Under the pieces are notes generated by a model. The model had not been told where the DNA came from. It saw only the letters and a program-made list of their open reading frames with translations, and did no database searches. This document shows, in pieces, positions 3,757 through 48,034 of a stretch of 64,000 nucleotides of DNA (positions within the stretch are counted from its first letter, which is position 1; each line of letters starts with the position of its first letter). The position numbers and the translations under genes were made by a program. Source of the stretch: Escherichia coli (GTDB lineage Bacteria; Pseudomonadota; Gammaproteobacteria; Enterobacterales; Enterobacteriaceae); the NCBI RefSeq assembly GCF_044324785.1, contig NZ_CP172127.1; one strand, written 5' to 3'.

Positions 3757-3764
3757 TATAATGT

Positions 3765-3792
3765 GAGTCGCACTATGGTGTGACTCTTTTTT
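3765..3792 (+). terminator. putative rho-independent terminator between the two region 2 genes
   Basis: GAGTCGCAC-TATG-GTGTGACTC stem-loop followed by TTTTTT. Confidence 0.35.
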
Positions 3793-3874
3793 ATATGTCA
3801 GTGATAGTTATTAATGAAATATTTAATGCGCGAAGGTGTACGATTTTTACAATATTTAGAGACTGGTGGGTCAA

Positions 3875-4885: not shown

Positions 4886-4934
4886 ATAGCAATATATCTC
4901 AATATCTAAGAGCTGGTTTTTATATCGTTCATAG

Positions 4935-6143: not shown

Positions 6144-6177
6144 AAATAATTTGCGTAATAGTCAACTATGAAATTGT

Positions 6178-8942: not shown

Positions 8943-8951
8943 TTCAACTCC

Positions 8952-10631: not shown

Positions 10632-10651
10632 AAACTCATTCAGCGACAGCG

Positions 10652-11800
10652 TTAGTCTCGGTGATCTTCAATAACAGCCAGCAACAGTTTCAGGGTGCCG
10701 AATAGCAGGCAGCACACCAGTAACCAGCAGGCGATCAAATAAGGGATATTTGGAAAAGACGATTCCTGCGGCAACTGTGGCGAACTGATCACTGACAGCA
10801 CCTTGAGCTTACGAGCCGCTTCTACACGGGTCTTTTCAATGGAGGTCAGGGTCAGTTTGTACAGCTCGGTGTTGAACTCTACTTTTGATTTGATTTCTTC
10901 AAAATCCACCGCCATACGGTTTAGCTTGTCACCCTGCGGCGCTGTGATTTTGCTTTTTTCTTCGTCAATTTGTGCCTGCAATGACTGAATCGCATTACGC
11001 GCACTCACAACTTGCGGGGCGTCTTCACGCAGATACGTCAGCAAGTTCCGCAGGTCCGCTTCCATCTGGATCTTCTGGCCCATCAGCGTATTGACTAACG
11101 TGCTCGCCGCCTGTGCCTGTGCCTGTGGATCCAGAACGTTGTTGTTGTCCTGATAAGAGAGCAATTCCGCTTTGCTGGCGTCCAGACGCTGGCGTGCCTT
11201 TTCCATCTCCGTTTCTGCAAAGGCAAGCTGGTCACGCGCGATGCGATGTGACATCTCATTGATAAAGCGCTCTGACTCTTTCAGCACGGTCTGGTTAAAC
11301 TTAAGCGCAAACTCCGGGCTAAAGCCCTGCGTCTGAATATTCAGTAATCCGGTTTTATCGTCATACGAGACGTTGATACGGTCCTTGTAGTACTTCAGGA
11401 AGCCTTCTGCAGTTTCATCCTTGCTAAGATGATTAAGAAAATCGAGCCCGCTGTGGCTAAACGCTTCACGAAAATTTAGTTGCTTATCCAGTGCCGCCAG
11501 CATATCCGGCGAGTTGATGTACTCTTTCAGATACAACGCATCTTCTGCGGAACTGGGGTTAGAGGCACCCAGAAGCAGACCAAAATTCAGGCTGCCGCTG
11601 TTTAAATCATCCGAGCGTTTAATGGCGACTTTCGACTCGCTCATATAGCGAGGCTGGCTGAAGATAGCCAGATAGATCAGCAGCACCGCCATCGGTGCCA
11701 GAATGATGATTTTCGCCAGGTGTTTTTGGATATCTGCCAGTGAGATGGCAGACAGACGAGCACGCATCCAGGATACGGCAGACTTCACTTTTATCAACAT
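10652..11800 (-). CDS. kpsE: capsule export inner-membrane protein KpsE
   Basis: 382 aa, N-terminal TM segment, coiled-coil middle, C-terminal TM; position between kpsF and kpsD. Confidence 0.85.
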   Translation of the reverse strand: MLIKVKSAVSWMRARLSAISLADIQKHLAKIIILAPMAVLLIYLAIFSQPRYMSESKVAIKRSDDLNSGSLNFGLLLGASNPSSAEDALYLKEYINSPDMLAALDKQLNFREAFSHSGLDFLNHLSKDETAEGFLKYYKDRINVSYDDKTGLLNIQTQGFSPEFALKFNQTVLKESERFINEMSHRIARDQLAFAETEMEKARQRLDASKAELLSYQDNNNVLDPQAQAQAASTLVNTLMGQKIQMEADLRNLLTYLREDAPQVVSARNAIQSLQAQIDEEKSKITAPQGDKLNRMAVDFEEIKSKVEFNTELYKLTLTSIEKTRVEAARKLKVLSVISSPQLPQESSFPNIPYLIACWLLVCCLLFGTLKLLLAVIEDHRD

Positions 11801-31765: not shown

Positions 31766-32797
31766 AACCAAGTCCTGTAGAAGTCTGTCTCATAGAAGTA
31801 TCTGTGCAGTGATATTCTCTGTAGTAGTACTTGTAACTCTGTTCTTAACTCTCTCTTCAGTAATGTAGTCCCGCAACACCTGAATATAAATCTGTAATGT
31901 TCACACACTGACTGTAACGTGCTTTGTTAAGTAATGTCTGCTATTTTTTTTTCTGTTATTTTTCCTGTTGTTTTCTGTATTTTGTTGTATGGTGTAATAA
32001 CTATTCTGAACCCGTCATCACCTTTATAGCTAAGAGTATGACTTCGCCAGTGTTGATACTGTGGATAACGGTGATTAAGGAATTACTGTTAATGATCTGT
32101 TCCTGCAGCTCACCTGATGAGTTTTGGTAGTAATACGTAAAAGAGTATGCCTCATGTCATTAAAAAGTCTTCCGGAGTGTTGTTTAACCCTGTACCTCTG
32201 TTACTCATGTAGTACGTTGCGGAAAGCTACGTTAATTGTAATATCTGGTTATGGCGTTATGCCTTCAGTATTAAAAACATCTTTTACCGGAGAAACTGGG
32301 AAGTGGAAAGGCTTTCGGGATAACGTCAGGCCATTATGACGATATTACGTTAATCACAGTACAAGATAACGAGAGGGTAATGGAATTTTAAACCAGAGTA
32401 GTTCCACTGTTGTTCACTGGAAAAAGTGATTTCCCACGCGCGTTATAAGCTTACTCCAGAGGAGATGGAAGCCTTCAACTCTGCGGTCGATCACCGGCTG
32501 GCAGAACTGACCATGAACAAACTTTACGATCGTGTTCCCGCTTCAGTCTGGAAATATGTTACCTGATAAATGTTTCTGATGAAGTACAGTCGTCACAATG
32601 ACATCACTTCAGATATTATCTGCGCTGTGATTGACTGTCACGTATGCCGTTCTCTGTATGGTTCTGATACCCGGGTGTGGTCCCACTTTCTCTGTGGCGC
32701 CCGGGGAGTTGTGAACCTGCACGTCTTCGTGTGATAACGTTTTCTTCAAAAATTACGCCAGCGCTTCTTCCTGTGTTACAGAACACGAGGAAGAAAC

Positions 32798-33397
32798 ATG
32801 AAGACTTACAACACCAATCCCGGTTACGAAATGGATCCCCAGCTCCTGACACACTTTAACCAGCATCTGGATTCATTATTCGGGGTATATTCGAAACTGT
32901 TACCGTTCAGAATGGATTTTGCTTACCGAAAAAACACCCTCAGCTACAGATGTGCCTGCAGGTACGCCATGTGCGCGGAGATACTGCGACTGATTAACGA
33001 AGTGGGAGAGAAACTGGTCGGGTATGCCTGGGTAATGGAATATACGGAACGTAAAGGGCTTCACATTCATTTTGTGGGCTATCTGAACGGTCAGAGCCAC
33101 AGGAGTTCGTATCTGGTATCCAGATTGATGGGAGATATCTGGAGGCGGGTTACCGGGGGGGATGGTTACTACCACTGGTGCCGGTTTAATAAAAATTATC
33201 CGGTAAACATTAACCACGTCATTCACTATTCAGATCACAAAGCGGTGAATGCCTTACGCTATGCCATCAGCTACCTGGCCAAACGAGAACAGAAAGAATG
33301 TGGCATCATCCTGAAATGCAGCGGGCTTCCTGAAAAAAGTAATCGGGGTCGACCGCGACTGGGCAGCCCCCTGCCGGAGACTTATTCTCTGGTGTAA
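32798..33397 (+). CDS. inovirus Gp2-type / YagK-YfjJ family protein (HUH replication-initiator-like)
   Basis: 199 aa; HUH-like LHIHFVGY motif; SD GAGGA. Confidence 0.65.
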   Translation: MKTYNTNPGYEMDPQLLTHFNQHLDSLFGVYSKLLPFRMDFAYRKNTLSYRCACRYAMCAEILRLINEVGEKLVGYAWVMEYTERKGLHIHFVGYLNGQSHRSSYLVSRLMGDIWRRVTGGDGYYHWCRFNKNYPVNINHVIHYSDHKAVNALRYAISYLAKREQKECGIILKCSGLPEKSNRGRPRLGSPLPETYSLV

Positions 33398-33762
33398 GAC
33401 CCTGAACGACAACTACGGGCTGGCGCTAATTGTTACAGTCGGTTCCGGAGGCCACTTCAGGGACTCTGCGCATTTTTTACGACATGGCTATTCCGTATGA
33501 ACCATACGGAGATTTAACCATGGCACATTCTTTACCATTCCTTCCGGCAACCGATACAGCACATCCTCCGATGTCCATCCCTGCCTGCTGACAGTTTTTT
33601 ACGCCGGAGGGCCATTGTGTGACAACCACAGTGCTGTAACAGCAACCAGCCTGCTTTACCCAAACTCCAGTCCAGATTTTAACTGAACCGCCATTCACAC
33701 CCTGACCACACTGCCCGTACCGGGACAGCTGTTGCCTGCGTGTCGTCTGGCTGCTGAGGAAT

Positions 33763-34152
33763 ATGACGATGTACGCAAAATCCTTTATTGCATTTGATGG
33801 CAACGGGCGTCTGACGGGTGCCCGTACCGCACAGACTGCACCTTACGATCGCTACACTTGCCACCTTTGCGGCAGTGCGCTCAGATACCACCCGCAATAC
33901 GACACTGAGCGTCCCTGGTTTGAACACACTGACGACGGGCTGACGGAGCACGGTCAGCAGTGCCCTTATGTCAGACCGGAACGCAGGGAGATACAACTGA
34001 TTAAGCGTCTGCAGCAATTCGTACCGGATGCCTTACCCGTGGTGCGTAAAGCCAGCCGGCACTGCAGACAATGTCATCACGATTATTATGGGGAGCGGTA
34101 CTGCACGCACAGCCATACCGGGCACTTCAGTGAGGAGGGGGTGGCAGAATGA
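33763..34152 (+). CDS. small zinc-ribbon protein (paralog 1 of a tandem pair)
   Basis: 129 aa; CHLCGSAL...WFEH followed by a C-terminal CxxC/His cluster; stop overlaps next start (ATGA). Confidence 0.5.
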   Translation: MTMYAKSFIAFDGNGRLTGARTAQTAPYDRYTCHLCGSALRYHPQYDTERPWFEHTDDGLTEHGQQCPYVRPERREIQLIKRLQQFVPDALPVVRKASRHCRQCHHDYYGERYCTHSHTGHFSEEGVAE

Positions 34153-34574
34153 ACGGTATAAAAACGGGGCTGGGGATCACGCCGGGTGAACACATTATCA
34201 GTGCTGATTCTGCGCTCAGCAGAAATATCCGGCAGTGTTTCTGCCTTTCCTGTCATGGCCGGTTGATTTTGCAGACAGATGCTCAGGGGGCGTGGTTTGA
34301 GCACGATTTACATGTCCTGAGCGAGCAACAGAAGGCAGCCTGCGTGGTGCTGAATCCGGAAAAGTCCCACCCTTACATTGAGGATATGGAGATGTTTTTA
34401 TCGCCATTACCGGTCGTGCTGGAGTGGCATTGTGTGATGTGTGAGCAGTTTTTTCATGGGAAGAAATTCTGTGAGGCCTGTGGTACGGGGATTTATTGCA
34501 GAGCGGTATGTACGAAGTCTGTTTACAGCTACCAGCCAGACTTGTTTCAGGACTGCGGAGGTGCGAGTACTTAA
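34149..34574 (+). CDS. small zinc-ribbon protein (paralog 2 of a tandem pair)
   Basis: 141 aa; CLSCHGRL...WFEH and CVMC...CEAC motifs parallel the upstream gene. Confidence 0.5.
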   Translation: MNGIKTGLGITPGEHIISADSALSRNIRQCFCLSCHGRLILQTDAQGAWFEHDLHVLSEQQKAACVVLNPEKSHPYIEDMEMFLSPLPVVLEWHCVMCEQFFHGKKFCEACGTGIYCRAVCTKSVYSYQPDLFQDCGGAST

Positions 34575-35045
34575 TCCGAAATGCCCGACCTGCTCAGGGC
34601 GTTCAGAAGTATCGGAACCTGCATTTTATCTGGTGTTTCGCACCCACCCCGTTCGTGACACAAAGGCGCGACACCGGATATCCGCAGTCCTGCTTACCTG
34701 AATAAAACCCGGGGTATTGATTGTGTACTGTGGTGCGAAATCGCACCGTGATCGCGGATTCGCCGAATCCGCACTGTGGTGTCAACCAACCATACGCGAG
34801 AGTCCTCTCCGTATTTATCAGTGCCTCAGGACGATTTCTGCATAGTTAATCCAGGGGGCTGCATTGTTTATTTCCCTGCTAATGGACGTGACATCCAGGA
34901 TATTCATGATCCTGATTTCCCTGAGCAGTATCAGCGCTTATTGGAGCGTCTGGATTATCAGACGATGCCCGGTACTAAAGCATCAGGCCAGCGTAACTCT
35001 GGCTACAGCGGTTTTTGACCTGTTGTAACTGTAAGGTGATTTATT

Positions 35046-35612
35046 ATGTATACAGAATCAAATGTTAAGCTTTCCTGTAACGCCCTCTGGCAAAAGTGTG
35101 TCCTTGCAACTCTGTATCGGGCTGCAGCCACACATCCTGAAATTAAATTATTACAATTTAAATTAATACCAGGGCAGGGTATTAATAAGGCCATTCCCTC
35201 TCTGATGGCTGATTTTACTGGTGAACTGCATAGACTCATTTCTGAATATTTGCAGTGTAAGCGACGTAAAGAGCAATCTGTTGAGCCCACCCCTTTATAT
35301 TATCTCTGGAGTAGGGAAGCTGTGGCTAACGATACCACTCCTTATCTTATGGTGCTGCTACTTAATAACGATGTCTGGTGTAAGAGTCGTGAGGTGGTGG
35401 TTCTCAGAAATCTGATTGAGCAGGCGTGGGGAAAAGTATTGGGTGAAGATAACTCCATTACACATCTGGTTGTGTATCCTGAAGTGCTGTCGTTGGTATT
35501 TGATGCAGCTAACACATACAACGCTGAGCCTGCTGTACTGGAACAGACGGCCCGGGCTTACATTGAATCACATGGTACCATTGAACGTCATCTTGGGTGT
35601 AGTGACTTTTAA
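35046..35612 (+). CDS. YagK-like (inovirus Gp2-type) protein with degenerate HUH motif
   Basis: 188 aa; YLWSRE...PYLMVLLLNNDVWC aligns with the HYHVILLLNKDTWC motif of the 57669 paralog but lacks both His. Confidence 0.6.
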   Translation: MYTESNVKLSCNALWQKCVLATLYRAAATHPEIKLLQFKLIPGQGINKAIPSLMADFTGELHRLISEYLQCKRRKEQSVEPTPLYYLWSREAVANDTTPYLMVLLLNNDVWCKSREVVVLRNLIEQAWGKVLGEDNSITHLVVYPEVLSLVFDAANTYNAEPAVLEQTARAYIESHGTIERHLGCSDF

Positions 35613-35957
35613 CGTCAGGTGATGCATAAGGGCCTTTCGCTGAGAGGCCCTGTTTACACAATTAAATAAATCGAGCCCGACCAACAATTTTGATGTTAAC
35701 AGCAGGATTATTGAGGGGCAATCAATGTGTTCTTCGGTAGCGATTACGGTAGTGAACGGACCTGCTGTCTGAATGGCATCGATCCGCAAGCGTATCGGCG
35801 CCATATTCTGAGCGTACTACTGAAATGGCTAATGGCAGTAAAGAGAGACTTTACGTATATTTGCATAAAGCAGGATTTTACGACTAGTCAACATTCTTTA
35901 TAATTCTTCAGGTTCAGAGTATCTGACATATAGGGTTATGTATTGGGGAGACATTTA

Positions 35958-36659
35958 ATGTTTGGCCATCTGTTACGATACTTTAGTTTCTGTAAAAAAG
36001 ATTTATTAGTATTTCATCCTGAATCTGATTACTCAGATAATTTACATAAAGCCTTCTCTTTTACAAAAAGGCTAGGATTTAATGAAGAATGGAATGGGGT
36101 CACAAAAAACAAAGAATATGATTATCAGGATGTATTCAGTCATGTCTGTCTGCAGTCTGGTGTGACAGACTTTTCCGCTTCAGCAGGACAATGCTTAAAG
36201 TGGAGTCATTATTTTCAGCCATATTTTGAGAATATCCTTGAATGTCGGGTATGGGTTACCGTTGGACAACTCTGGAAACAGGAACGATTTATTTACAATC
36301 CGTCAGTTGCGGATTTTCAGCGCTGGTCTGAAAAAGGGATTCAGCCTGAAGATTTTAGACATCACTCGGGGTTTAACTTTCATGCGTGGTTGACGACGGA
36401 AAATGGTGTGATTGTGGATGTTTCCTTTATGAGTACGTTATCGCGGCGATTACCTGAACACCTGAGTGAAGTCAGTGGAAGTGTGATTATTGGCACGCCA
36501 GAGACGGTTCTTCCTGAGTATAAATATGTTCCCATGATTGTCGGTCAGAGGATTGTTGAGAAAATAGAAAAACGCTCTTTCATTGGTTTTCTGGCGCACG
36601 ACGATATTGATTTATATACAGTACCTGCAATCTTGGTTCCGGTATGGAAAGAATGTTAA
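35958..36659 (+). CDS. hypothetical orphan cargo protein
   Basis: Track ORF starts at TTG 35943; ATG at 35958 preceded by GGGGAG; 233 aa; low GC; no recognisable motif. Confidence 0.5.
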   Translation: MFGHLLRYFSFCKKDLLVFHPESDYSDNLHKAFSFTKRLGFNEEWNGVTKNKEYDYQDVFSHVCLQSGVTDFSASAGQCLKWSHYFQPYFENILECRVWVTVGQLWKQERFIYNPSVADFQRWSEKGIQPEDFRHHSGFNFHAWLTTENGVIVDVSFMSTLSRRLPEHLSEVSGSVIIGTPETVLPEYKYVPMIVGQRIVEKIEKRSFIGFLAHDDIDLYTVPAILVPVWKEC

Positions 36660-36978
36660 AGCACGGAATAACACTATGCACTTACCGCTTTCCGGAACTC
36701 AGCTTGTTACCTGAGCGGTCAACAGAGCAGTCTTTCAGTGTCTGCACTTGGTTGCCACTAAACCGGAGTCATTTATCAGAAGTATATGTTCATGGAAGGA
36801 TATTGTCAGCGCCAGTGATATAAGACGGTAATGAGGATAGCCACCCCGCATGGGTTTCCTCAACACTGGTCACTGTGACAAGCGCACCATGATCGTCTTT
36901 GTATCGCTGATTGACTTTCGATAATAGAACATCTTCTGACATAAATTTTAGTACGGTAACAATTAACTAAATTTTCAT

Positions 36979-37245
36979 GTGGTAGCACTGAATCAGGAGA
37001 CTGCGTTTCCTGATGTGTGCTTCTGCAGCCGTTACCGGATACAGACTTCGATACCAGTTACTTCGACATCCGCCATGTGTCCTGGGACCCGCTATAACGA
37101 AGTTGGAGGTAATCAGTACAGCGTTCCCGAAATGCTGTGTGGTCAGCCAGTCTCGATACGAATATCGCTGAACGATGAGTTGCGGATCTACAGTAATGAG
37201 AAACTGGTGGCCTCACATCGCCTCTGCTCAGTGTCGTCTGGCTAG
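36979..37245 (+). pseudogene. IS21-family IstA C-terminal fragment (remnant)
   Basis: ...NQYSVPEMLCGQPVSIRISLNDELRIYSNEKLVASHRL resembles an IstA C-terminus; no N-terminal part. Confidence 0.35.
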
Positions 37246-37389
37246 CAGATAGTACCGGAACCTCACGCCCCGCTCTGGCAGCAGATCAGTCAGGTGGAAC
37301 ATCGACCACTGAGTGCCTATGAGGAGCTGTTGTGATGCATGTGTCAACGACGGATGAAAGTGGCTCTTCCGCAACCTGGGTGGAGATTT

Positions 37390-38816
37390 TCATGCCAGTG
37401 GACTCATTACCCTCTGCCTGAGTAGTTCAAATCCTGCTCGACCATACATCTGGCGTTTCAGCATCTTCAGGCGATTTACATGACCTTCGACAACACCATT
37501 ACTCCAGTGACTACTGATTGCCTCACATATAGCTGCAGCATCAGCTTCCATCCCCGCCGCCACGCGCCGAAATTCTGCTGAACCGCTTTCGTGGACTCGA
37601 GTGAACCAACTGCTTAGCTGTGATTTATTTTGGGTTTTCAGAATACGGTAGAACTCGAGTGCCAGTTGCTGCGCTATTTTCAGCTCAGGTTCTTTTTCAC
37701 ACATCAGACTAATAAATCGGGAAGCATAATTTTCTTCATCCCTGGTTATTCTCCAGGGCATCAACCAGCGGCTTACCCGGGACACTGAAGGAAGTCTGAC
37801 GGCAGTAGTAACCGGTGGGTTCCAGCCTTTACGCCATTTGGCAACCGCATCCCTGACGATGGTTTCACTGCCTGTAAATCCCCGGGCCACCATTTCCCGC
37901 CATATCCGGCTGGCGTTATAATTACCACTTTCTCGTTGCTCTTTTAACCACTCCCTCCATGGGTCCAGAAGCCCTCGCTTTGGCGGTCGGGTTGACATTT
38001 CAGGGAATGTTCCTGAACGCACCCAGCGACTGACTGTCACACGCGACAGGCCTGTAATACGGGATATTTCCCTGAAACTACATCCCTTGTTATGCAGGGC
38101 CATAACCTCTGTCCAACGCTGATGCCGTTTTTTGCGGGTTTGTTGTTTTAGGCGTTCCGGACGACGGAGCGATGCTGCAGGCACAGATGGTTCTGGATCA
38201 GGTGATTTCTTTGGTGACAACTCACTGGCAACAAGACGTATCAGAGGTATATGTCTATACATCATTCGTTCAGGCGCATCGCCAATATTTTTTAGCAGAT
38301 GCCATCGATCGGCCACCTGTCTGGCCTGAGGTGCACCTTCACGTGCTGCTGTCGCATAGACTCCACTGCGATCACGCGAGACAATCTGTATTTCCGGATA
38401 TTTTCTGAACCAGGTCGCCAGCGTACGCTGATCACGGCCGGGAAGCAGGACGAGGGGACGGTGAGTATCAAGATTGACGATTAACGTACCGTAACGGTGG
38501 CCCCGATGCCACGCCCACTCATCAATACCGACATGAGGCGAGCCTGACTGTTTCGTCTCCGGGGTATTGATAACCCTGCGAAGGAGAGTATCAGCACTGC
38601 AACGGAGACCCACTGCCGTTGCTGCCCGTTTCCCGGCCTCACCTCCGGCGATTAATCCCAGTTGACGTTGTAAATTTTGTAACGCCTGTGAAGACTGTTG
38701 GTGTGAACCGGCGAAGGGAGCAAGCGACTCGGCAAAAATTTTACGTGAACAAGCCGGGTTACGGCAGTACCAGTGGCGGACAGAAAATACAAGCCATAGC
38801 GTATGTCCTGAGCAGG
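37390..38816 (-). CDS. ISL3-family-like transposase, 5' end truncated by IS2
   Basis: GIDEWAWHRGHRYGTLIVNLD DDE-domain start and C-terminal SNGVVEGHVNRLKMLKRQMYG motif typical of ISL3; track ORF start lies inside the IS2 terminus. Confidence 0.5.
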
Positions 38817-38827
38817 TGGATTTGCCC

Positions 38828-39733
38828 CTATATTTCCAGACACCTGTTATCACTTAACCCATTACTGGCCTGCTGCCGCAGATATTCCCGTGGCGAGCGA
38901 TAACCCAGTGCACTATGCGGATGCCATTCGTTATAATGCTCGAACGCCTCTGCAAGGTTCTTTGCTGCCGTTAACCCGTCTGGTTTAGGCATGATACTGA
39001 TGTAGTCACGCTTTATCGTTTTCACGAAGCTCTCTGCTATGCCGTTACTCTCCGGACTCCGCACCGCCGTGTTCTTCGGTTCAAGCCCCAACATCCGGGC
39101 AAACTGCCGTGTTTCATTAGCCCGGTAGCATGAACCATTATCCGTCAGCCACTCTACTGGAGACGCCGGAAGCTCGTTGCCGAAGCGGCGTTCCACCGCT
39201 CCTGGCATGACGTCCTGTACTGTTTCACTGTCGAAGCCGCCCGTAGTGACTGCCCAGTGCAGTGCCTCACGGTCACAGCAGTCCAGCGCGAACGTGACTC
39301 GCAGTTTTTCTCCGTTATCACAGCGGAACTCGAACCCGTCAGAGCACCATCGTTGATTGCTTTCTTTCACGGCCACTTTGCCAGTATGTGCCCGTTTCGA
39401 TGGCGGTACAGCGGTTTTTCGCTCAAGCAACAGCGCATTCTGGCGCATGATCCGGTAAACACGTTTGGCATTGATCGCAGGCATACCATCAAGTTCGGCC
39501 TGTCTGCGAAGCAGCGCCCATACCCGACGATAACCATACGTGGGCAGCTCTCCGATAACATGGTGTATACGGAGAAGCACATCCGTATCATCTGAGTGAC
39601 GGCTGCGGCGACCATCTTTCCAGTCATCGGTTCGTCTGAGAATTACGTGCAACTGCGCACGCGACACCCGGAGACAACGGCTGACTAAGCTTACTCCCCA
39701 TCCCCGGGCAATAAGGGCGCGTGCGCTATCCAC
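38828..39733 (-). CDS. insD: IS2 transposase OrfB (InsD)
   Basis: 301 aa recognised as IS2 InsD (DDE integrase core). Confidence 0.9.
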
Positions 39734-40056
39734 TTTTTTGCACGCCCGTATTCAACGGCTTCTTTAAGGAGTTCATTTTCCATCGTTTTTTTGCCGAGCA
39801 GGCGCTGGAGTTCTTTAATCTGCTTCATGGCAGCAGCAAGTTCAGAGGCAGGAACGACCTGCTCTCCTGCGGCCACAGCAGTAAGACTTCCCTCCTGGTA
39901 TTGCTTGCGCCAGAGAAATAACTGGCTGGCTGCCACACCGTGTTGCCGGGCAACAAGGGAGACCGTCATTCCCGGTTCAAAACTCTGCTGAACAATAGCG
40001 ATCTTTTCCTGTGTAGTACGCCGTCTGCGTTTCTCCGGTCCTAAGACATCAATCAT
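39691..40056 (-). CDS. insC: IS2 OrfA (InsC)
   Basis: [56 protein letters not shown]; track ORF trimmed to MIDVLG. Confidence 0.9.
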
Positions 40057-40613
40057 CTGCTCTCCAATGACTAGTCTAAAAACTAGTATTAAGACTATCA
40101 CTTATTTAAGTGATATTGGTTGTCTGGAGATTCATGGGGCCAGTCTAATGTGTATCCGGGATGGATGTTTACCAGAACCTTCTCTGTTCCAGTGTGTGGA
40201 GTTTTACAGAAGAGGCGACTGTATGCAACTCTTGCCCCGTAACTGTCTTTATTCGTTTCTCCACACTCTCCGGACATTGTAAATTCCAGATGTGTGGCAG
40301 TGTGTTTTTCGTAAATCGTACACAATGCATTTTTACACGGAGTTCAGCCAGTCGTATCACTGAGAGTTTTTTTCTGATTTGTACCACTCATGCAGCAGTG
40401 ATAAGGAGATATTTTCTCTGTCGGGCCAGCAGGGGCGGTGCCACCTGTTTAGTTTTCTTATGTTTGGTAAAAGAGAGGCTAAAATATATACAACAGGCGT
40501 ATGTAATGATTCATATTGTTAATCATTAACCAGTAAGAATTAATGTAGTGGATCGGTAATTCAGGACACCTCGAAATCCTGTTAATGTTAAAACAGTGAA
40601 AATGGGGTGATGC

Positions 40614-40931
40614 ATGAGCAAAACTCGTCGGACTAAACGCACCTTTTCCCCGGAGTTCAGGCTCGAAGCTATCGAGCAAGTAGTTAAATACCAGCGCGAT
40701 GTCAGAGAAGTCGCGCTGGCACTTGAGCTCAATCCTGACCATTTGCGTAAATGGATACGGTTGTATAAGCTGGAACTTCAGGGTATTGAGCCCGCTGGTA
40801 ATGCCATACCCCTGAACAGCGAGAAATTCAGCAGCTTAAAAGCGCAGATAAAGCGCCTTGAGATGGAAAAAGAAATACTAAAGCAGGCTGCCGTGCTGAT
40901 GAGCGAAATCCCCGGCAAGCTGTCGCGCTAA
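40614..40931 (+). CDS. IS3-family transposase OrfA; downstream orfB truncated
   Basis: 105 aa with HTH and leucine-zipper-like C-terminus; orfB-like frame continues to about 41060 and is cut. Confidence 0.65.
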   Translation: MSKTRRTKRTFSPEFRLEAIEQVVKYQRDVREVALALELNPDHLRKWIRLYKLELQGIEPAGNAIPLNSEKFSSLKAQIKRLEMEKEILKQAAVLMSEIPGKLSR

Positions 40932-41099
40932 TCACACTGCTGAAAGCAAAGCGGCCAGTGCGGATTATTTGTCATTTATTCGGTGTTCACCGTAGCGTTT
41001 ATTACGCGCAGGTGAAGCGTCCTGTTAATGTATCAGCGCCAATGATATAAGACAGTAATTAGGATTCGGACGATTTCCTGGACTGCTTTATTATGCCAG

Positions 41100-42650
41100 C
41101 CCGCATTGTTGGCGGTACATTTCAGGGATGACTGCACCCAGCGAAAATTTTATACGCCGCTCGTTATACCATCTGATGTAAGCATCCACATGCCGCATGA
41201 ATTTTTCAGGCGTGATACCCAATCATTTACGCCCATAATATATTTCAGTTTTCAGTCTGCCGAAAAAGCCTTCGCATGCAGCATTATCAGGCGAGCATCC
41301 TTTACGGGACATTGAGCGAATAAGGCCTGCTGTATTCACTCTTTCCAGCCAGGCCAGCGATAATGCCCACCTCTGTCACTGTGTATCACCGGTCGTTCGC
41401 CAGCATTTAACGTTTCGACAGCGTTATCCAGCATAGTGTTGACCAGTTCAGCATCGGGGCGTGTACTGAGAGACCAGCTCACAACTTTTCTGTCGAAGCA
41501 GTCCACCACCGGTGATAGCCAGACTTTTCCTGCAGGAAGCTGGAACTCCGTGATATCTGTCAGCCATTTCTGATTAGGTTGCTCCGCCTTAAAATCTCTG
41601 GCGATAAGGTTATCCGGAGAAGGTCCGATTTCTCCGCAATATGAGCTGTAGCGGCGATGACGGTTACGGCTGACGACAAGCTGTTCCTCCACCATAAGTC
41701 TGCGTACAACCTTTTCTGATAGCCGATCCCCCTCATGCCTGAGCATCGCATGCAGGCGACGATAGCCATAACACTGGTAATTACTGTTAAATATATCTGT
41801 CAGCATCGTACGTATCGTGGCGTATTTATCACTGGCTTTCAGTGCAGCCCGGTGATAAAAATAACTGCTACGGGCAAGGCCCAGAACATGCAGTAATTCT
41901 GTCAGGGGATATGTTTATCTCAGGGCATCAGTAATCTTTGTTTTTTCTCTGTTGTTCAGGTGACTGATGCTGATGCCCGGGTCTTTTTTTATTATTTCCT
42001 CCGCTTTTTTCAGAATATCCAGTTCCATCTGCCGGCGGCGTATTTCCTGATTCAGTCGGGCGACTTCCTCCCGCAACGCATCGCGTTCTGCCTCCAGGGA
42101 AGGGGCGTTATGTTTACGCATAGTCTGGTAAGCACTGTTGCCGATAATTTCATCTTTCCATTTATACAATACCGCGCGACTGACACCAATACGCCTGGCG
42201 ATTTCACTGGCTGATCCTTGTCGTGTACAGAGTACCATGACAGCCTGACGTTTGACTTCTGGTTCAAAGGACGCAACCGGATTGGTCTTACTGGTAAATA
42301 CACGTCGTCTGTCGGGGGAACGTTCATTAACCCAGCGAGCGAGCATATCGGTACAGGGATAACCCAGAGTCCTGCTGGTAAACGCCAGGCAGCAGCCGTG
42401 GTTAAGATAATGTTCAACGGCAACCTGTTTTTGCTCATCGGAGTAACGGTGCTTATGACGAATGGATTCTTTTGATCCGCCACCTGCTTCCCATGAACGG
42501 ATCCAACGCCGCAGATTTCTTTTCGAAGGGTAGCCCAGTTCGCGTACGACGGGGCCAGCTTCTTACCATATTTGAAATAAAGCTCAATGGTGCGAATTTT
42601 TTGTTCTTCAGTAAACATGTTTCATCTCCTGAGAGTCCAGGAAATCGTCC
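41100..42650 (-). mobile_element. degraded IS3-family insertion sequence (orfA and orfB frameshifted)
   Basis: ORFs 42052-42618, 41915-42346 and 41336-41806 encode pieces of IS3-type OrfA (HTH) and OrfB (DDE core) in different frames. Confidence 0.6.
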
Positions 42651-42868
42651 GCATCCCCTAACGGTCAAAAATCGTGGCGTTGATACAGGGGAAATCCGTA
42701 GTTTTTGATGCCAGCCATAACGTGTTTGACTATAAAGTATTACGAAAGGACTTTAATGAGCCCCTGGAATAATTCATTAAAGTAATTTACTTCGCTATCC
42801 TTTTCCCAGTTACTCACAAAGAAAAATATTCATAAAATAATTCCCGGGCTGGCAGCCCGGGATGATTA

Positions 42869-44131
42869 CTATTTTAATGGATTGTTAATCTTTGCATATT
42901 CAAACGGGCTGATACATTGTTCTCTGTTCGCACCCAGAAAATCTGCCCACCACTGTAGCATCAGTCGACGTTCTTCCAGATGTTCTGCTTTATGGATATA
43001 TGCAGCACGTACACCATTACGCTCCTGATGGCTCATCTGACGTTCCACAGCATCGCGGGACCACAAACCTGATTCAATCAATGCACTGCACGCCATCGCC
43101 CGGAATCCATGACCACAGACTTCCTGGGTTGTGTCATATCCCATCACCCTCAGGGCTTTATTTACAGTATTTTCACTGATCGGTTTACGCGGGTCATGTG
43201 CTCCCGTAAAGATCAGACCATTTTCACCAGCCCATGTCTGTAGTTCTGTCAGTATGGCTACAGCCTGTTTGCTGAGTGGCACAAGATGTGGTGTTCGCAT
43301 CTTGGAGCCCCGGTGTGAGTATTTTACGCCTGGCAGAGGTTCGCGTTCGGCTGGAATAGTCCACATGGCATTGTCAATATCAATTTCAGACCAGCGGGAA
43401 TATCTGAGTTCACTGGAACGAATAAAAACCAGTAAATTCAGCATAACTGCCAGTCGGGTGACAGGCTGACCTTTATAACCGTCAATACGCGACAGAAGTT
43501 CAGGCAGGCGTGAAAGATCCAGAGCAGGGCGATGCTGGCGTTTTACCGTGGTCAATGCACCAGCCATATCCAGAGCCGGGTTATATCTGATGATGCCAGA
43601 CTGTACGGCATAACGCATTACAGCAGATATTCTTTGCTGCAGACGACTGGCGATTTCATAAATTTGTTTTGCTTCTGCAGCACGAACAGGGATAAGCAGG
43701 TCCGGGGTATTGAGTGTTGTGATATCCCGGTTGCCGATAAAGGGGAAAACGTGTGTCTCGAGGCTTTTGATTACTTTATCGCTGTGTGATTGTGCCCATT
43801 GTTTATTACTGGCATGCCAGCGTCGTGCAATATGTTCAAAAGAGAGTTGTAAATCAGGGACTACTTTTTTAGCTCTTTTTTGTTCGCAAGGGTCAATCCC
43901 CTCTGAAATCAGTTTTCGGGCCTCATCCCGTTTTGTACGAGCTTCGGAGAGAGAAACTTCTGGATATACACCAAGTGCCAGAGTCTTCTCCTTACCCAGA
44001 ATACGATAACGGAGACGCCAGTAACGGGAACCATTAGGATGAACCAGCAGGAACATGCCAGCCCCGTCAGTGAGTTTATAAGCCTTGTCAGTGTGCTTTG
44101 CAGCCCGGATTTTTGCGTCAGTCAGTGCCAT
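42869..44131 (-). CDS. P4-type (IntA-like) tyrosine integrase
   Basis: 420 aa; MALTDAKIRAAKHTDKAYKLTDGAGMFLLVHPNGSRYWRLRYR N-terminus typical of P4-family integrases; next to tRNA-Phe 3'-end repeat. Confidence 0.85.
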   Translation of the reverse strand: MALTDAKIRAAKHTDKAYKLTDGAGMFLLVHPNGSRYWRLRYRILGKEKTLALGVYPEVSLSEARTKRDEARKLISEGIDPCEQKRAKKVVPDLQLSFEHIARRWHASNKQWAQSHSDKVIKSLETHVFPFIGNRDITTLNTPDLLIPVRAAEAKQIYEIASRLQQRISAVMRYAVQSGIIRYNPALDMAGALTTVKRQHRPALDLSRLPELLSRIDGYKGQPVTRLAVMLNLLVFIRSSELRYSRWSEIDIDNAMWTIPAEREPLPGVKYSHRGSKMRTPHLVPLSKQAVAILTELQTWAGENGLIFTGAHDPRKPISENTVNKALRVMGYDTTQEVCGHGFRAMACSALIESGLWSRDAVERQMSHQERNGVRAAYIHKAEHLEERRLMLQWWADFLGANREQCISPFEYAKINNPLK

Positions 44132-44287
44132 AGTTCAGCCTTCTGAATGCGTTAAAGAGGGTACAAATTCTGTCGAACTGGGGTATACCCGCAATTATAC
44201 CCACACAATGGGGTTGATGTGGGGGGAATCTGGTTGAGTTCGGTAGAATTGATTTGGAGGCAGAACGCTTAAATTGTGGCGTTCTGA

Positions 44288-44317
44288 AACGAAAAACGGA
44301 CCTCCGTGGAGGTCCGT
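44288..44317 (-). terminator. rho-independent terminator-like hairpin
   Basis: ACGGACCTCC-GT-GGAGGTCCGT perfect inverted repeat followed by T-run on the minus strand. Confidence 0.4.
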
Positions 44318-44328
44318 TGATATGAATT

Positions 44329-44347
44329 TGGTGCCCGGACTCGGAAT
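44329..44347. repeat. 19-bp direct repeat of tRNA-Phe 3' end (att site)
   Basis: TGGTGCCCGGACTCGGAAT is the reverse complement of the tRNA-Phe 3' terminus; sequence diverges from the tRNA beyond 19 nt. Confidence 0.6.
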
Positions 44348-44594
44348 GAAACTGGTTGTATAACAAGTTGTTTTATATTGATTGTTTTGTGTTTGTTATT
44401 TTTGAGGCCACCAATGAGGCCCCCATGTGCAATTCGAATTCTTTTGACGCTATAATCCCTCTTTCTTGTGGTTTGTTGTAATCATTTTGTCTGGTTCGAT
44501 ATGCTGAATCGCGGAATCGAAGTGACAACAAAATACAGAGATTTATAAAATACCTGGCTACCTGTGTTAGGGAGCGTTAACGCACAGATTTTGT

Positions 44595-44921
44595 TTATGG
44601 CTGCCAGAAATGATCTGATGGTTTGTCGTCTGGCTCTGCAAGTACCCTGTTGATATCCCGGGAACCATGAACGATACGTTCGATACGAACTTCAGTATCC
44701 AGTACCCTGAACAGCAGAAGGTAACGACCATACGAACAACCTCTGATCCCAGCCCCTAACTCGGGTCTTTCTCTGTAGAGTACTGGCGATTCGGCTATCA
44801 ACAGACATTGTTGGTAAAGCTCTTCGGTAAAACTGATTGCACGGACAGGATTATCCTGAGCGATCCAGTCACCTATAGCTTCAAGATCGTGTTCTGCTAA
44901 TGGTGAAACAGTCAGTTTCAT
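44595..44921 (-). CDS. parE: ParE/RelE-family type II toxin
   Basis: 108 aa; overlaps upstream antitoxin gene by 4 bp. Confidence 0.7.
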   Translation of the reverse strand: MKLTVSPLAEHDLEAIGDWIAQDNPVRAISFTEELYQQCLLIAESPVLYRERPELGAGIRGCSYGRYLLLFRVLDTEVRIERIVHGSRDINRVLAEPDDKPSDHFWQP

Positions 44922-45181
44922 ATTGGCTGTTCACCTTCTGCCATCTTTTTGTATTTGTGCGTCAGTCGCCCGAATACCTCTTCAGCACTTTTACTTTCAC
45001 CGCTGTTGATGCCTGCGGTCACGGCGCTCTGGAGTGATTCAAGCTTTATCTGCTGTTCCCGTTCTTCCAGAGCACGAAGTCCGGCACGAATGACTTCACT
45101 TGTATTGTTGTACCGACCACTTTCTATTTGTTCGCGGATAAACGTTTCAAAGTAAGGACTGAGGGATACACTGGTAGGCAT
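44918..45181 (-). CDS. parD: ParD-family (RHH) type II antitoxin
   Basis: 87 aa; ...FIREQIESGRYNNTSEVIRAGLRALEEREQQ ParD-like signature. Confidence 0.7.
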   Translation of the reverse strand: MPTSVSLSPYFETFIREQIESGRYNNTSEVIRAGLRALEEREQQIKLESLQSAVTAGINSGESKSAEEVFGRLTHKYKKMAEGEQPI

Positions 45182-45252
45182 GGTTATTTTCTCGCCGATT
45201 GATCACTATCAATTAATAATAGTTAATATTCGTGAATTGTAAAATACCTCTT

Positions 45253-46122
45253 TTATGCCTTGCTGCTTTTGTTCACTGTGCTTGCCAGGGCTTCCGGGTA
45301 GTGTCTGGCAATAATATCATTAAGCCTGTCAACCAGCTCTGGTTTCCTGAACGTGATGTGCGCGGAGCCCTTCTTAAAGTATCTGATGCTGAACATCTCA
45401 TCTTCATAGTCCTCTTTACCCTGAACAGACTGGATGTGATCATCCAGATGAATGGTGATGTTTTCCCGGTTGTCGGGGATCGGTTTGCCGCTGAACAGGT
45501 GTAGCATTCTTTCCAGATCGGCAAGTCGATCTGCCTGTGGGCCGTTGTTCAGATGAAACCCCCACCGGTCCCACCTCACCAGGTTGTTGACGATAATTTT
45601 ACTGCCAAATTTGCAGGGGCAATTGGTTTTGTAATTCCAGCTCAGTCCCCTGAAGACGTTGATCACCCCTCGCTCAAACACCTCATCCTTATTCTGGTGC
45701 AGTTGTTCAAATGTGCTCAGAATGTTCGCTTCGCAGATTTCCGGAAAATTATCGTACTCCAGTGACCGGTACCATGTATCACGGGCTTGTGCATCCATTA
45801 ATGACAGCATCCCTGAACGTTGCATCAGGTCACGCCAGAGTTCGCGATCGAGATTCCGGGTGATGGCTTTCATTGCGGTTTCCGGTTTCTCCATCAGCCA
45901 GCAACCGCAGCGAAAATCCTGTTTCATGGCCCAGTCCCGGGCGGTTTTACCTCCAATACTTTCTGTCATTGCTGATATTTCAGCCAGTTGCCGGATAAGT
46001 GTGTCGATTTGCAGCAGTGTACTCTTTCGTACAGCCAGAATGTGGCGGATACTGGTTGAGCAAATAACGTCCGTATGCCCGGTGACCACTTCCGGACGGG
46101 AGGCTGTGATATCTGACATCAT
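45253..46122 (-). CDS. conserved island hypothetical protein (paralog of 14167-15009)
   Basis: 289 aa, near-identical to copy 1 over most of its length. Confidence 0.6.
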   Translation of the reverse strand: MMSDITASRPEVVTGHTDVICSTSIRHILAVRKSTLLQIDTLIRQLAEISAMTESIGGKTARDWAMKQDFRCGCWLMEKPETAMKAITRNLDRELWRDLMQRSGMLSLMDAQARDTWYRSLEYDNFPEICEANILSTFEQLHQNKDEVFERGVINVFRGLSWNYKTNCPCKFGSKIIVNNLVRWDRWGFHLNNGPQADRLADLERMLHLFSGKPIPDNRENITIHLDDHIQSVQGKEDYEDEMFSIRYFKKGSAHITFRKPELVDRLNDIIARHYPEALASTVNKSSKA

Positions 46123-46412
46123 CGTTTTTCCTTTTGGTTTATAAACGAAAACGCCAGCTGTATTCAGGCTGGCGTCAGGGGAATGAAGTATGGTGAGTGA
46201 TATTCACCGGTTCTGGTGCAGAAGCTGCAGTTGGCGCAGGGTACGGATATCTTCCCTGGCCTGTTCAATGCAGGGCAGCAGTGCTGTCGAATCCGTTTTA
46301 TCCTCATCGTTGTCAAAGATAATTTCCGATTCGCAGTCAATATTGTCCTGCAGCCACGCAATCAGAATATCCAGCGCTGTTTCCGTGGTTAATGATTTCA
46401 TGTTGTTCCAGG

Positions 46413-46901
46413 TTACCAGTTGAAAGTGGGTAAACCCGGCAGGCATTCAGCGCTGGCATCCAGATGAATGAGACTGACGCCATAACGTCGGGTAAGTGTG
46501 ACAACCAGACGGCGGAACGTTTTTGACAGGCCCAGGCGCTTAAGCCGCAAAACCGGGTATGACCACGCATCGGTACGTAACAGATATCCGCTACCTGTGA
46601 AATGAATCCATTCTGATTCGCCGGTGTCATTCGTCTGATGTGACAGCGAGTACAACCAGGCATTGTCCGTTTCCGTGATATGTGCGGTACTGCAGCGTAT
46701 GCCGGTAAGGGCCGCAGATGGTGGCGTGCGCTCTGCTGATGCCCGGTCAGATTCATCAACAACACGAAGGGAGTAACCGTTATCGCAGACCACGTTAATC
46801 AGTTCAGCGAGAGTAACACCATCGACGTCAACGACAATGCGCCCCATGTTCAGTGCCTGCACGTTAATGCTGTCGGCTTCCAGCGTCAGGGCCAGTTTCA
46901 T
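46413..46901 (-). CDS. hypothetical protein in yeeW-like position (variant of 15094-15516)
   Basis: 162 aa; N-terminal 50 aa match copy 1, then a divergent inserted segment; copy-1 C-terminus appears in a separate frame (46204-46446). Confidence 0.4.
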   Translation of the reverse strand: MKLALTLEADSINVQALNMGRIVVDVDGVTLAELINVVCDNGYSLRVVDESDRASAERTPPSAALTGIRCSTAHITETDNAWLYSLSHQTNDTGESEWIHFTGSGYLLRTDAWSYPVLRLKRLGLSKTFRRLVVTLTRRYGVSLIHLDASAECLPGLPTFNW

Positions 46902-47275
46902 TGTTTCGCCCCCGGATGTTTACCCAGGGTAATGTTATTTACCGTTCTGTAATTTTCGCGGGCCATCAGGCCGGTTGCCCGGCGTGCCCGGAGGATATCA
47001 ATACTGTTTATTAACTGAGAACGGGTACAGGCGCTGAATCCCGGCTGGTCGGTACGTACCAGCGCGTATTTTTCAACGAGAAAGTTCACCGCATCACACA
47101 GTGAAATGCCCGCTTCAATATGCTGCTCAATCACACGTTCATCAGCGAACGGTGTGTCATTCAGCGCGAGGCCGTAGTGCTGGTCCAGTAACCGGGTGAG
47201 CAGTGTCTGCCAGATGGTGACGGGAGACGGGCAGCACGATGCCTCCCGTACATGCGTGTCGGGTAATGTTTTCAT
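46898..47275 (-). CDS. cbtA: CbtA-family toxin, copy 2
   Basis: MKTLPDTHVREASCCPSPVTIWQTLL...; track ORF trimmed. Confidence 0.8.
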   Translation of the reverse strand: MKTLPDTHVREASCCPSPVTIWQTLLTRLLDQHYGLALNDTPFADERVIEQHIEAGISLCDAVNFLVEKYALVRTDQPGFSACTRSQLINSIDILRARRATGLMARENYRTVNNITLGKHPGAKQ

Positions 47276-47364
47276 AATGAAGATTTTCCTGATATGCAGA
47301 GATAAAAAATGGGACAGTGGCGTGGTGAAAGCACCAGGCCGGAGCAGAAGGTTATTCTGGAGAG

Positions 47365-47733
47365 TTACTTTTTCGTTTCGGGCGTCGGATAAACAGCCAT
47401 ATAAACGTAGCCACAACTGCCGAGGGTGTCGGCTTCGCAGGTCAGCCCTTTTGCATACAGTGTCACGGTATGCTGATGGCGGGGATTCAGTTCACCGCTG
47501 GTGAGCATGAGTTCCAGTTGTTTCATCAGCAGCGGAAAGGCCTGGTCCAGGTGGTACGAATCCGCGTCGCTGAACCGCCCTCTAATACAGGCGCGGTCGG
47601 CAAGGTAATGCAACCGGTTGCCTTCCTGTACCAGACGGGCACCAAAACAGGGCGTCACGGTGCAGGGCAGTCCCCACCAGGTGCGGTCGTTATTGTCGTC
47701 GGGAAGCGTTGTCCCGGGGAGTGTGTCTGACAC
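47365..47733 (-). CDS. cbeA: CbeA-family antitoxin, copy 2
   Basis: 122 aa paralog of 15937-16311. Confidence 0.8.
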   Translation of the reverse strand: MSDTLPGTTLPDDNNDRTWWGLPCTVTPCFGARLVQEGNRLHYLADRACIRGRFSDADSYHLDQAFPLLMKQLELMLTSGELNPRHQHTVTLYAKGLTCEADTLGSCGYVYMAVYPTPETKK

Positions 47734-47817
47734 GATAAAATCCTCACAGAAAATTGGTTAAGAATGGTCCGGTGGTGGCGATAATTCTGCTCTTCTGAAT
47801 GCCCTTCCAGACTCAGT

Positions 47818-48034
47818 TCAGGGTGACGCTCATCAGCCGGACATACGGACCAAAACTGTCCTTCCGGCGTTCTGCAAACACAGCCAGCACACCGGGAATA
47901 TCCTGTACTTCACGGCCGGTATATGTATCCGTGCTACCGTGTCAGCGGTATTTACCGGTACAGAACGGAAAAAGACGGGATGCAGGATGCTGACGGTGAA
48001 TACGCATGGCTTCACCACGGGTGATGATTTTCAT
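47818..48034 (-). pseudogene. YeeT-family gene, copy 2, with premature stop
   Basis: Collinear with 16387-16608, but the Trp codon in GKYRWHG reads as TGA in this copy. Confidence 0.45.

Follow-up and report, generated by a model that had tools for sequence, protein, structure and literature searches.

Remnants of insertion sequences (IS), deletions linked to IS2, miniature transposable elements with inverted repeats (MITEs) and the targeting of one element's repeats by another IS are all known kinds of structure. In the IS110 family, IS4321 and IS5075 (IS1111 group) have as their target the terminal repeats, 38 bp long, of transposons of the Tn21 family, and IS1397 and ISKpn1, of the IS3 family, target the palindromic units of bacterial interspersed mosaic elements (BIMEs). 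Deletions adjacent to an IS are classically associated with IS1 and have been reported for IS2 and other IS3-family elements too. In IS21 the terminal ~29 nt form the first IstA-binding module. To our knowledge, the nesting of IS1353 in IS1326 has so far been treated as a one-off structural feature and not as evidence of targeting. In this work we have investigated a 64,000-nucleotide stretch of Escherichia coli DNA (contig NZ_CP172127.1, hereafter the window) in which a 34-bp repeat stands at two junctions of an IS pile close to an integrase gene. What the window contains is the ordinary debris of insertion sequences nested in one another, at that end of an E. coli genomic island where the integrase gene lies. 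Our overall reading, which we hold with considerable confidence, is that the IS21 tips in it come from two events, that an IS3-family element, here called element C, lies within a miniature IS21, that a loss of DNA is linked to IS2 and that the clade of element C has a preference for the ends of IS21-family elements.

Two IS21 tips in the window

The first-pass annotation of the window had noted two copies of the repeat in the same orientation, and a search with its degenerate pattern bore this out, with exactly two matches, both on the plus strand, at 36805-36838 (copy 1) and 41032-41065 (copy 2), which are direct repeats at a distance of 4,227 bp. The pattern fits copy 1 without mismatches and copy 2 with one outside the degenerate positions (its first base is A, not G); the two are identical at 31 of 34 bases. 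The pattern was absent from 100 dinucleotide-preserving shuffles of the window, an expectation of 0.00 matches, and an independent repeat search recovered the same pair (33 nt at 91%). The annotation had also suggested that an IS21-family element might end in this repeat, and this was correct: positions 36804-36832 are identical at 29 of 29 bases to the left terminal repeat (IRL) of complete IS21. Our reference IS21, so named by the Prokaryotic Genome Annotation Pipeline (PGAP), is 2,131 bp long, has intact istA and istB genes and lies in umuC of plasmid pMTY13770_IncF between 4-bp CTAT duplications. With the terminal TGT included, the IS21-derived part of copy 1 is 36804-36832 (29 nt), and that of copy 2 starts at 41029. 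Copy 2 differs from the IS21 left repeat by two substitutions and a 2-nt insertion near the tip (TGTATCAG compared with TGTCAG). Past base 29 neither copy reads as IS21, so that, by alignment, the IS21 descent of the 34-bp repeat is limited to its first 29 bases; the final five shared bases may reflect a common ancestry in the tip of element C or coincidence. In essence the repeat consists of the ~29 nt at the very tip of the left terminal repeat of IS21, and two separate events have deposited it at its two places. Neither copy has an istA or istB gene of its own. The 29-nt core itself is common; 2,538 E. coli genomes have it at nearly 4,000 sites altogether, the majority of them on plasmids.

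Copy 2 is the left half of a 52-bp gene-less miniature IS21 (41029-42687) that was split at its centre by element C with a TAA duplication, and C has since decayed. The left half, with the variant tip TGTATCAGCGCCAATGATATAAGACAGTAA, occupies 41029-41058 on the plus strand, as comparison with the empty 52-bp element described below demonstrates. It is followed by element C (41059-42658, minus strand), a degenerate 1,600-bp member of the IS150 group of the IS3 family, recognized from its pair of repeats, which agree at 96%, and from its annotation as a pseudogene; its transposase gene is broken by frameshifts and a stop. Its inverted repeats of 23-26 bp have the sequences TTAGGATTCGGACGATTTCCTGGACT and TGGGGATGCGGACGATTTCCTGGACT-like. 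The right half of the miniature (42659-42687, plus strand) reads TAACGGTCAAAAATCGTGGCGTTGATACA, which by comparison with IS21 is the tip of the right terminal repeat (IRR); it points outward, in the correct orientation, and lies beyond the interval that the first-pass annotation had considered. TAA stands on both sides of C, at 41056-41058 and at 42659-42661. The last bases of the copy 2 repeat are not IS21 but the tip of the inserted C. Three further observations concern the variant tip. A sister composite in plasmid pB7A_99 has normal tips. The left TGT of copy 2 overlaps sequence native to its left neighbour, the IS3-family element A (…GTTAATGTG…). Lastly, a metagenomic copy of the same tip lineage (L087) starts at TCAGCGCC and lacks TG.

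Copy 1 (36804-36832, plus strand) is a solo IS21 left tip, TGTCAGCGCCAGTGATATAAGACGGTAAT, with no IS21 sequence past nt 27-29. It has no inverted partner end, and an outer duplication cannot be assessed there. It is fused to the inside of a DUF4222 gene, which is truncated at its 3' end and occupies, with its upstream region, 36833-37021 (minus strand). The gene was identified from alignments in which the intact version in WP9-S17-ESBL-11 and the sequence of Br_167 were the partners, and PGAP annotates it as a pseudogene in E. coli TUM9803. The same junction is present in Br_167, a 92%-identical relative. The bases directly past the tip (GAGGATAGCC...) are DUF4222 sequence, natively ATGCGGATAGCCGTCCCGCAT, and beyond the junction the window has an 11-bp deletion relative to intact copies. 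The truncated gene still forms a 50-amino-acid open reading frame (ORF) through the IS21 tip (36790-36942, minus strand), and the annotated 72-amino-acid DUF4222 protein of Br_167 likewise reads through the tip; part of such proteins is translated transposon end.

How did the solo tip arise? The join can be placed within a 2-nt ambiguity at IS21 nt 27-29, which is the insertion point of C, and the DUF4222 sequence at the join (TGCGGAT) matches the tip of C (TGGGGAT) at six of seven positions, with a chance of ~0.0013. We had considered the TGAGGAT past copy 1 as an unambiguous 7-nt stump of C; this was ruled out, and since these bases align with intact DUF4222 genes, the argument from a stump was downgraded to one from microhomology. 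Because the join falls at the insertion point of C and the bases there resemble the C tip so closely, we favour a deletion between the tip of a formerly resident C (TGGGGAT) and the similar DUF4222 sequence (TGCGGAT), which would have removed C and the DNA beyond. While the structure at copy 1 is plain to see, this history is most likely, as far as it can be read from the sequence. A serious contender, to which we give somewhat less than an even chance, is that copy 1 never held C, and that a full-length IS21 or a plain 52-bp miniature was truncated at nt 27-29 by an unrelated deletion into DUF4222, the shared AGGAT being coincidental. In its favour, the bases past the tip align with intact DUF4222 (ATGCGGATAGCC) with no C-derived base needed, the AT that IS21 (...GGTAAT) shares with the DUF4222 sequence is enough for an illegitimate join, and at a distance of 190 bp there is an istA fragment, IS21-like and with the same orientation. 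However, the identity to IS21 is just 92% for that fragment and 100% for the tip; no more than 1-2 nt separate the break from the point at which C inserts, for which a random break in the 2,131-bp IS21 would have a chance of roughly 3 in 2,131; and with C as the partner the join would have 8 nt of microhomology instead of 1-2 nt.

Could the two copies nevertheless be the boundaries of one unit, either direct repeats from a single duplication or insertion event or the ends of a 4.2-kb composite segment? They have the same orientation, lie 4,227 bp apart and each stand at a junction of unrelated sequences. The first-pass annotation, which saw them bracketing the IS pile, was right about the content: the istA fragment, the ISL3-like transposase, IS2 and the truncated IS3-family orfAB are all present between them. 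The copies themselves, however, are both left ends of IS21, and of different lineages, whereas a transposable unit needs inverted ends, and the true partner of copy 2 is found to its right, at 42659-42687. They thus do not form inverted functional ends moving together. A recent duplication is contradicted by the three differences in 34 positions and the 2-nt indel at the tip, in a region that is 99.9% conserved between strains; the copy 1 junction is present in Br_167 without istA, ISEc38 or IS2 material; and no transposase makes 34-bp duplications. We regard a single unit as extremely improbable. The material between the two copies is unrelated debris.

Element C, its relatives and the 52-bp miniature IS21

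C relatives at 93-95% identity occur in 1,577 of 5,426 E. coli genomes. The intact transposase, of 510 amino acids in pB7A_99, matches the NCBIfam IS3 model (E=8e-128) and has the Pfam domains HTH_28, HTH_Tnp_1, HTH_21, rve and rve_2, with one extra N-terminal helix-turn-helix (HTH) domain; its amino acid identity is 61% to ISKpn38, 52% to IS1353 and 43% to IS150. C has the attributes of the IS150 group of the IS3 family, namely a DDE transposase with HTH domains and terminal repeats beginning with TG (TGGGGATGCGGACGATTTCCTGGACT). Duplications of the 3-4 bp usual in the family are present as well, TAA in the window, GTA in composite L007 and AAA in Mangrovibacter copy Y, and they are blurred in L006 and L009. 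No specific name for C was obtained from NCBIfam, PGAP or cluster names, which give just "IS3 family transposase". A GTCCGC-centred likeness of the C repeat to IS21 nt 39-56, noticed by eye, was rejected, since its geometry does not suit an insertion that is targeted by the repeat to nt 28.

C was found between the IRL and IRR tips of IS21, or beside one tip where one end was seen, in umuC of pB7A_99 and at L007, L009 and L004. These independent contexts comprise, besides umuC, two loci on chromosomes or plasmids and, for one end, a pINV plasmid of enteroinvasive E. coli. It occurs in both orientations relative to IRL and IRR, and its junctions are shifted by 1-2 nt. A junction query consisting of the tip and the C repeat was covered to at least 80% in 1,142 genomes, a figure that includes some low-identity cross-matches. 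Among species-representative genomes, diverged C relatives lie between correspondingly diverged tips in Escherichia albertii, Kosakonia, Klebsiella indica, Dickeya and Mangrovibacter. Outer 4-bp duplications flank the C-filled tips in umuC of pB7A_99 (AAGG) and in Mangrovibacter (ACCT). As to umuC, in IncF-type plasmids this gene carries a full IS21 (CTAT; L005 ~4004) and a tip-capped C (AAGG; L006 ~3018) inserted 10 bp apart, and in many other plasmids an IS21 tip stands at the umuC break; umuC may be a hot spot for IS21-type insertion.

If C is nested in a miniature IS21, the miniature should also exist without it. Removal of C and one copy of the 3-bp duplication from the split copies predicts a 52-bp sequence, TGTCAGCGCCAGTGATATAAGACGGTAACGGTCAAACATCGTGGCGTTGACA, and this was found in E. 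coli as a single piece with 100% identity. A place covering at least 80% of the 52-mer is present in 1,053 of the 5,426 complete E. coli genomes, about a fifth, and in 289 plasmids; the 40 top-ranked records are all 100% identical to it, most as a single 52-bp piece. The element consists of IRL nt 1-28 followed by IRR nt 24-1 and contains no gene. Examples are at positions 2501-2552 of L054 (E. coli NCTC86) and in L056, L057 and L185. The commonest chromosomal copy has a 4-bp CAAA duplication and lies beside an IS481-family element. We found the element unannotated, and once lying under a "transposase" coding sequence. It comprises the terminal repeats of its parent only, is non-coding and stands in at least four distinct flanking contexts, as is expected of a MITE. 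In composite L007 GTA stands on either side of C, whereas the native IRR of IS21 reads ATAACGG, and L007 can thus have arisen only by insertion into a pre-formed 52-bp element. The 4-bp duplications around one empty and two C-filled copies suggest that the miniature and the tip-capped C may be moved in trans by IS21 transposition proteins. The 52-bp element itself may have originated by a deletion of IS21 at a TAA microhomology, or by two C insertions followed by recombination and excision.

Are the IS21-like tips perhaps the genuine outer ends of one long-ended IS3-family element, with nothing nested at all? The conserved and co-diverging association of C with the tips across genera, and the 4-bp duplications around the outer tips in two cases, would accord with that. 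However, the sequences of the tips are exactly those of IRL and IRR in IS21, which has istAB genes of its own, and the pair of tips also exists empty, with 100% identity. C in turn is found without tips (L008), it lies in both orientations relative to IRL and IRR, and its inner ends have 3-bp duplications of their own. Moreover, IS1353 lies inside a complete IS1326. A long-ended element is hardly credible against these observations.

The pattern is also seen with hosts other than IS21. IS1353 lies exactly 28 nt from the IRL tip of IS1326 in the In2-type integron of pEC009.1. A metagenome scan with the repeat core of the clade yielded 118 unique flanks, in which TGT stands 34 nt (20 flanks) or 33 nt (9 flanks) upstream of the repeat core, whereas the background at any one offset is 1.8 (Poisson P ~9e-15). 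Thirty-three metagenomic tips share the consensus TGT.aacGcC, like IS21-family ends, and in L107 and L179 the tips adjoin istB or istA. When istA and istB were sought beside the metagenomic tips by tblastn, just 3-4 loci were found, most contigs being too short or having miniature hosts. Inverted partner tips lie ~28 nt past the far end of the element in L081, L091, L095 and L122, and judging by these tips the C relatives there sit in miniature hosts of four different lineages. Two single loci deserve a description of their own. In L107 (1129-2233) a 1.07-kb internally deleted C relative lies between an IS21-like right tip and the final codons of istB (85% amino acid identity to IstB of IS21), and the IS21-like end has lost ~60 bp where there is a microhomology, GCGGA. 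In Klebsiella pneumoniae plasmid pPM48_140 (L058 2440-2500 and 4050-4090), a motif of ~20 nt, GACGGACATCTYAAYTTAGC, stands on both sides of ISKpn38 as a direct repeat, and a TGTTG tip is 10 nt away from its outer copy; ISKpn38 thus seems to have entered an IS21-family end between its first repeat module and its second.

C and its relatives (IS1353, ISKpn38-like elements) show a preference for insertion at a distance of about 28 nt from the tips of IS21-family elements, on the inner side of the terminal repeat module. This preference would explain why the same junction is seen twice in the window. While the pattern of a fixed ~28-nt position is shown by the compared sequences, its mechanism can only be suggested. 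Perhaps the transposases of the clade would select the inner edge of the terminal IstA-binding module, by means of the extra N-terminal HTH domain or through a distortion of the DNA, and the tip-capped copies of C would then be mobilised by IstA and IstB in trans. A broader proposition follows the same lines: a widespread IS150-group clade would home ~28 nt inside IS21-family repeats, the two surviving tips would make of it a 1.66-kb tip-carrying element with its own transposase, movable by IstA/IstB in trans, and the 52-bp miniature would be its target and possibly its by-product. We consider this evenly balanced between being right and being wrong.

Several observations weigh against our reading. 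About 72% of the metagenomic ends of the clade are not beside a TGT tip, and C also occurs alone, without tips, for instance beside sat in an island (L008); for these two reasons we speak of a preference and not of strict site-specificity. The composite in the window has no outer duplication of the 4 bp (occasionally 5 bp) that are usual for IS21-family elements, its flanks being TTAA and GGGG (or ATGT and GGGG). Both of its outer tips (41029-41035 and 42681-42687) read TGTATCA and not TGTCA, an odd and symmetrical 2-nt difference. A clean duplication was seen in one of four sampled contexts of the empty element and was lacking in three, and most of the ~1,050 genomes may share one locus, so that recent mobility of the miniature is weakly supported. 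At copy 1, a plain IS21 or a miniature cut at nt 27-29 would give the same sequence as the favoured origin from a C tip, with a shorter microhomology, and an undeleted ancestor, in which the left flank of copy 1 is followed by the miniature IS21 or by C, was not found in the 5,426 genomes.

IS2, ISEc38 and the surroundings of the integrase gene

A complete IS2 of 1,331 bp occupies 38817-40147 on the minus strand, as judged from its length, its ends (IRR TGGATTTGCCCC at 38817 and IRL TAGACTGGCCCC read from 40147) and its open orfA and orfB; the identical copy in TUM9803 is annotated by PGAP as an intact transposase with programmed frameshift. The first-pass annotation had remarked that IS2 lacks a matching 5-bp duplication and had suggested an IS2-mediated adjacent deletion that removed the 5' end of the ISL3-like gene. 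Both points were borne out. The flanks are GCAGG on the left and ATGTG on the right, with no 5-bp duplication. At least seven genomes, strain ST3 among them, agree with the window at 99.9% on both sides but lack IS2 and keep 1,159 bp in its place; positions 32400-38816 of the window correspond to 1-6417 of the ST3 locus (L002), and positions 40148-44350 to 7577-11780. Where IS2 starts in the window, the uninterrupted ISL3-family element of ST3, ISEc38, continues for 267 bp, which comprise its left repeat and the first 64 transposase codons. The other 892 bp of the IS2-free strains carry a gene for a 166-amino-acid MarR-family protein (L002 6743-7243), which is absent from the window between 38816 and 40148. 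This protein is 73% identical to the regulator adjoining the pap fimbrial operon of strain CE10 and is thus PapX-like. Since the loss linked to IS2 has removed its gene, a candidate regulator of fimbriae or motility is present in some strains with this type of island and missing from others.

The missing duplication of IS2 is explained by the loss of these 1,159 bp relative to the IS2-free strains. IS2 arrived and adjacent DNA was lost, either by intramolecular transposition of IS2 or by recombination between two IS2 copies, and the two routes are equally possible from what the sequence holds. Taken as a replacement for deletion catalysed by IS2, homologous recombination between two direct copies 1.16 kb apart is an alternative that we rate a little below even. 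It would give the same product, a single IS2 whose left flank stems from one insertion and whose right flank stems from the other, with no matching duplication, and these genomes have many copies of IS2, which in other strains is often a neighbour of ISEc38. It requires, however, two independent insertions in the same orientation within 1.2 kb, and we found no strain that has one of these insertions or the two together. The query for such intermediates, made of synthetic junctions with IS2 at either junction, a 5-bp duplication and the 1,159 bp intact, gave no contiguous match, and this also counts against our own reading of an IS2-linked loss. Many unrelated E. coli genomes have IS2 and ISEc38 no more than about 1-2.5 kb from each other, beside gamma-glutamyltransferase and phosphotriesterase-related genes or beside IS66. 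This proximity suggests a recurrent association or a regional preference.

The ISEc38 of the window (37362-38816, minus strand) retains 1,455 of 1,722 bp and only its right repeat (from 37362), and was identified by the NCBIfam ISL3 model (E=2e-111) and the ST3 map. The terminal repeats of the full element in ST3 are at L002 4963-4985 and 6662-6684. Even this 1,722-bp copy does not have the 8-bp duplication of the ISL3 family, being flanked by the unmatched ATGAAAGT and TGATTTCA. In its 539-amino-acid transposase (L002 4991-6610; truncated at 37390-38816 of the window), residues 303-398 match the N-terminal part of the IS21-family model NF033546 (E=1.6e-16), and this match suggests an inserted or shared HTH module.

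Two further fragments complete the debris. The 3' part of an istA gene of an IS21-like element, up to the istA/istB overlap, lies at 37022-37341 on the plus strand (91.9% identity to IS21 over 320 nt; L005 4965-5283 equivalents) and is annotated as a frameshifted, N-terminally truncated "Mu transposase domain" pseudogene. With 92% identity compared with the 100% of the tip, it probably derives from an element other than the IS21 of the tip. Element A (40543-41031, plus strand; tip TGTAGTGGATCGG) is an IS3-family element cut just past orfA (40614-40931), as found from an NCBIfam match to the IS3 N-terminal model and by comparison with strain CE10. It is 93.6% identical to the first 486 bp of the fuller CE10 copy, an annotated pseudogene with an internal stop, which continues ...CCTGTTAATGTGCAAAG where the window switches to the IS21 tip.

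The stretch 32400-44350 is 99.9% identical to the chromosomes of TUM9803 and ST3 and is the integrase-proximal end of a genomic island, for which the site is a tRNA-Ser gene in TUM9803 but a tRNA-Phe gene in ST3. The tyrosine-type integrase gene of the island (42869-44131, minus strand; 420 amino acids) was identified from the ORF list and annotation. A fragment of a phosphoethanolamine-transferase gene (42684-42773, plus strand), annotated by PGAP on the identical TUM9803 and ST3 sequence, lies between it and the IS pile. ARAGORN found no tRNA gene anywhere in the window, hence none next to the integrase gene, and Rfam found no RNA family in 35500-45000. Past the integrase gene (42869-47900) follows the distal end of another island, with RelE/ParD, DUF4942, CbtA/YeeU and antirestriction genes, which indicates two islands in tandem.

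Significance and comparison with known systems

The window alone, decayed mobile DNA at the edge of a genomic island, is of very little import. The wider pattern, however, accounts for a recurrent unannotated sequence of 29-52 bp in thousands of E. coli chromosomes and virulence or resistance plasmids, which annotation pipelines leave blank or read through. With it the nesting of IS1353 in IS1326 in Tn21 integrons turns from a curiosity into one case of a targeting rule. In the searchable literature we found no description of a 52-bp IS21 derivative or of the targeting of IS21-family ends by the IS150 group, though the curators of ISfinder or TnCentral may know it. The system is also tractable for asking how a DDE transposase picks a target set by the end of another transposon, and whether one IS can use the transposition machinery of another through the tips that it has acquired.

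How do these structures compare with those already described? With IS21 itself, the locus shares the 29 nt of copy 1, which are its IRL, and the sequence at 42659-42687, which matches its IRR, and the composite of pB7A_99 has a 4-bp outer duplication like that of IS21 in umuC. It differs in that neither copy in the window has its own istA or istB and in that copy 2 has the variant tips TGTATCA. As regards the deletion, a complete IS with unmatched flanks stands in place of DNA kept by sister strains, as in other IS-associated adjacent deletions, but here the sequence does not decide between intramolecular transposition and two-copy recombination. The 52-bp element resembles MITEs in consisting of the terminal repeats of a known IS, in being non-coding and in occurring in several contexts, once with the 4-bp duplication of its parent. 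However, with a single binding module at each end its length is unusually small, and few of its insertions can be shown to be independent. It may also have come about as a by-product of C and not by simple internal deletion.

Of the systems in which one IS enters another element, that of IS1353 in IS1326 (In2, Tn21-type) is the nearest. IS1353 is an element of the IS150 group with the same domain order as C and lies 28 nt inside the left repeat of an IS21-family element, although its host is a full-length IS1326 with intact istAB and not a miniature. IS4321 and IS5075 also home to a fixed position in the terminal repeat of another mobile element, but they are DEDD elements, orientation-specific and strictly site-specific, whereas C is a DDE element of the IS3 family, inserts in both orientations with a scatter of 1-2 nt and shows a preference only. 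IS1397 and ISKpn1 are, like C, IS3-family elements that insert into the centre of a short imperfect palindrome, and the 52-bp miniature IS21 is such a palindrome. Their target, however, is a repeat of the host, the repetitive extragenic palindrome (REP) or palindromic unit (PU), whereas C uses the ends of another IS, including single, non-palindromic ends such as those in IS1326, L107 and L179.

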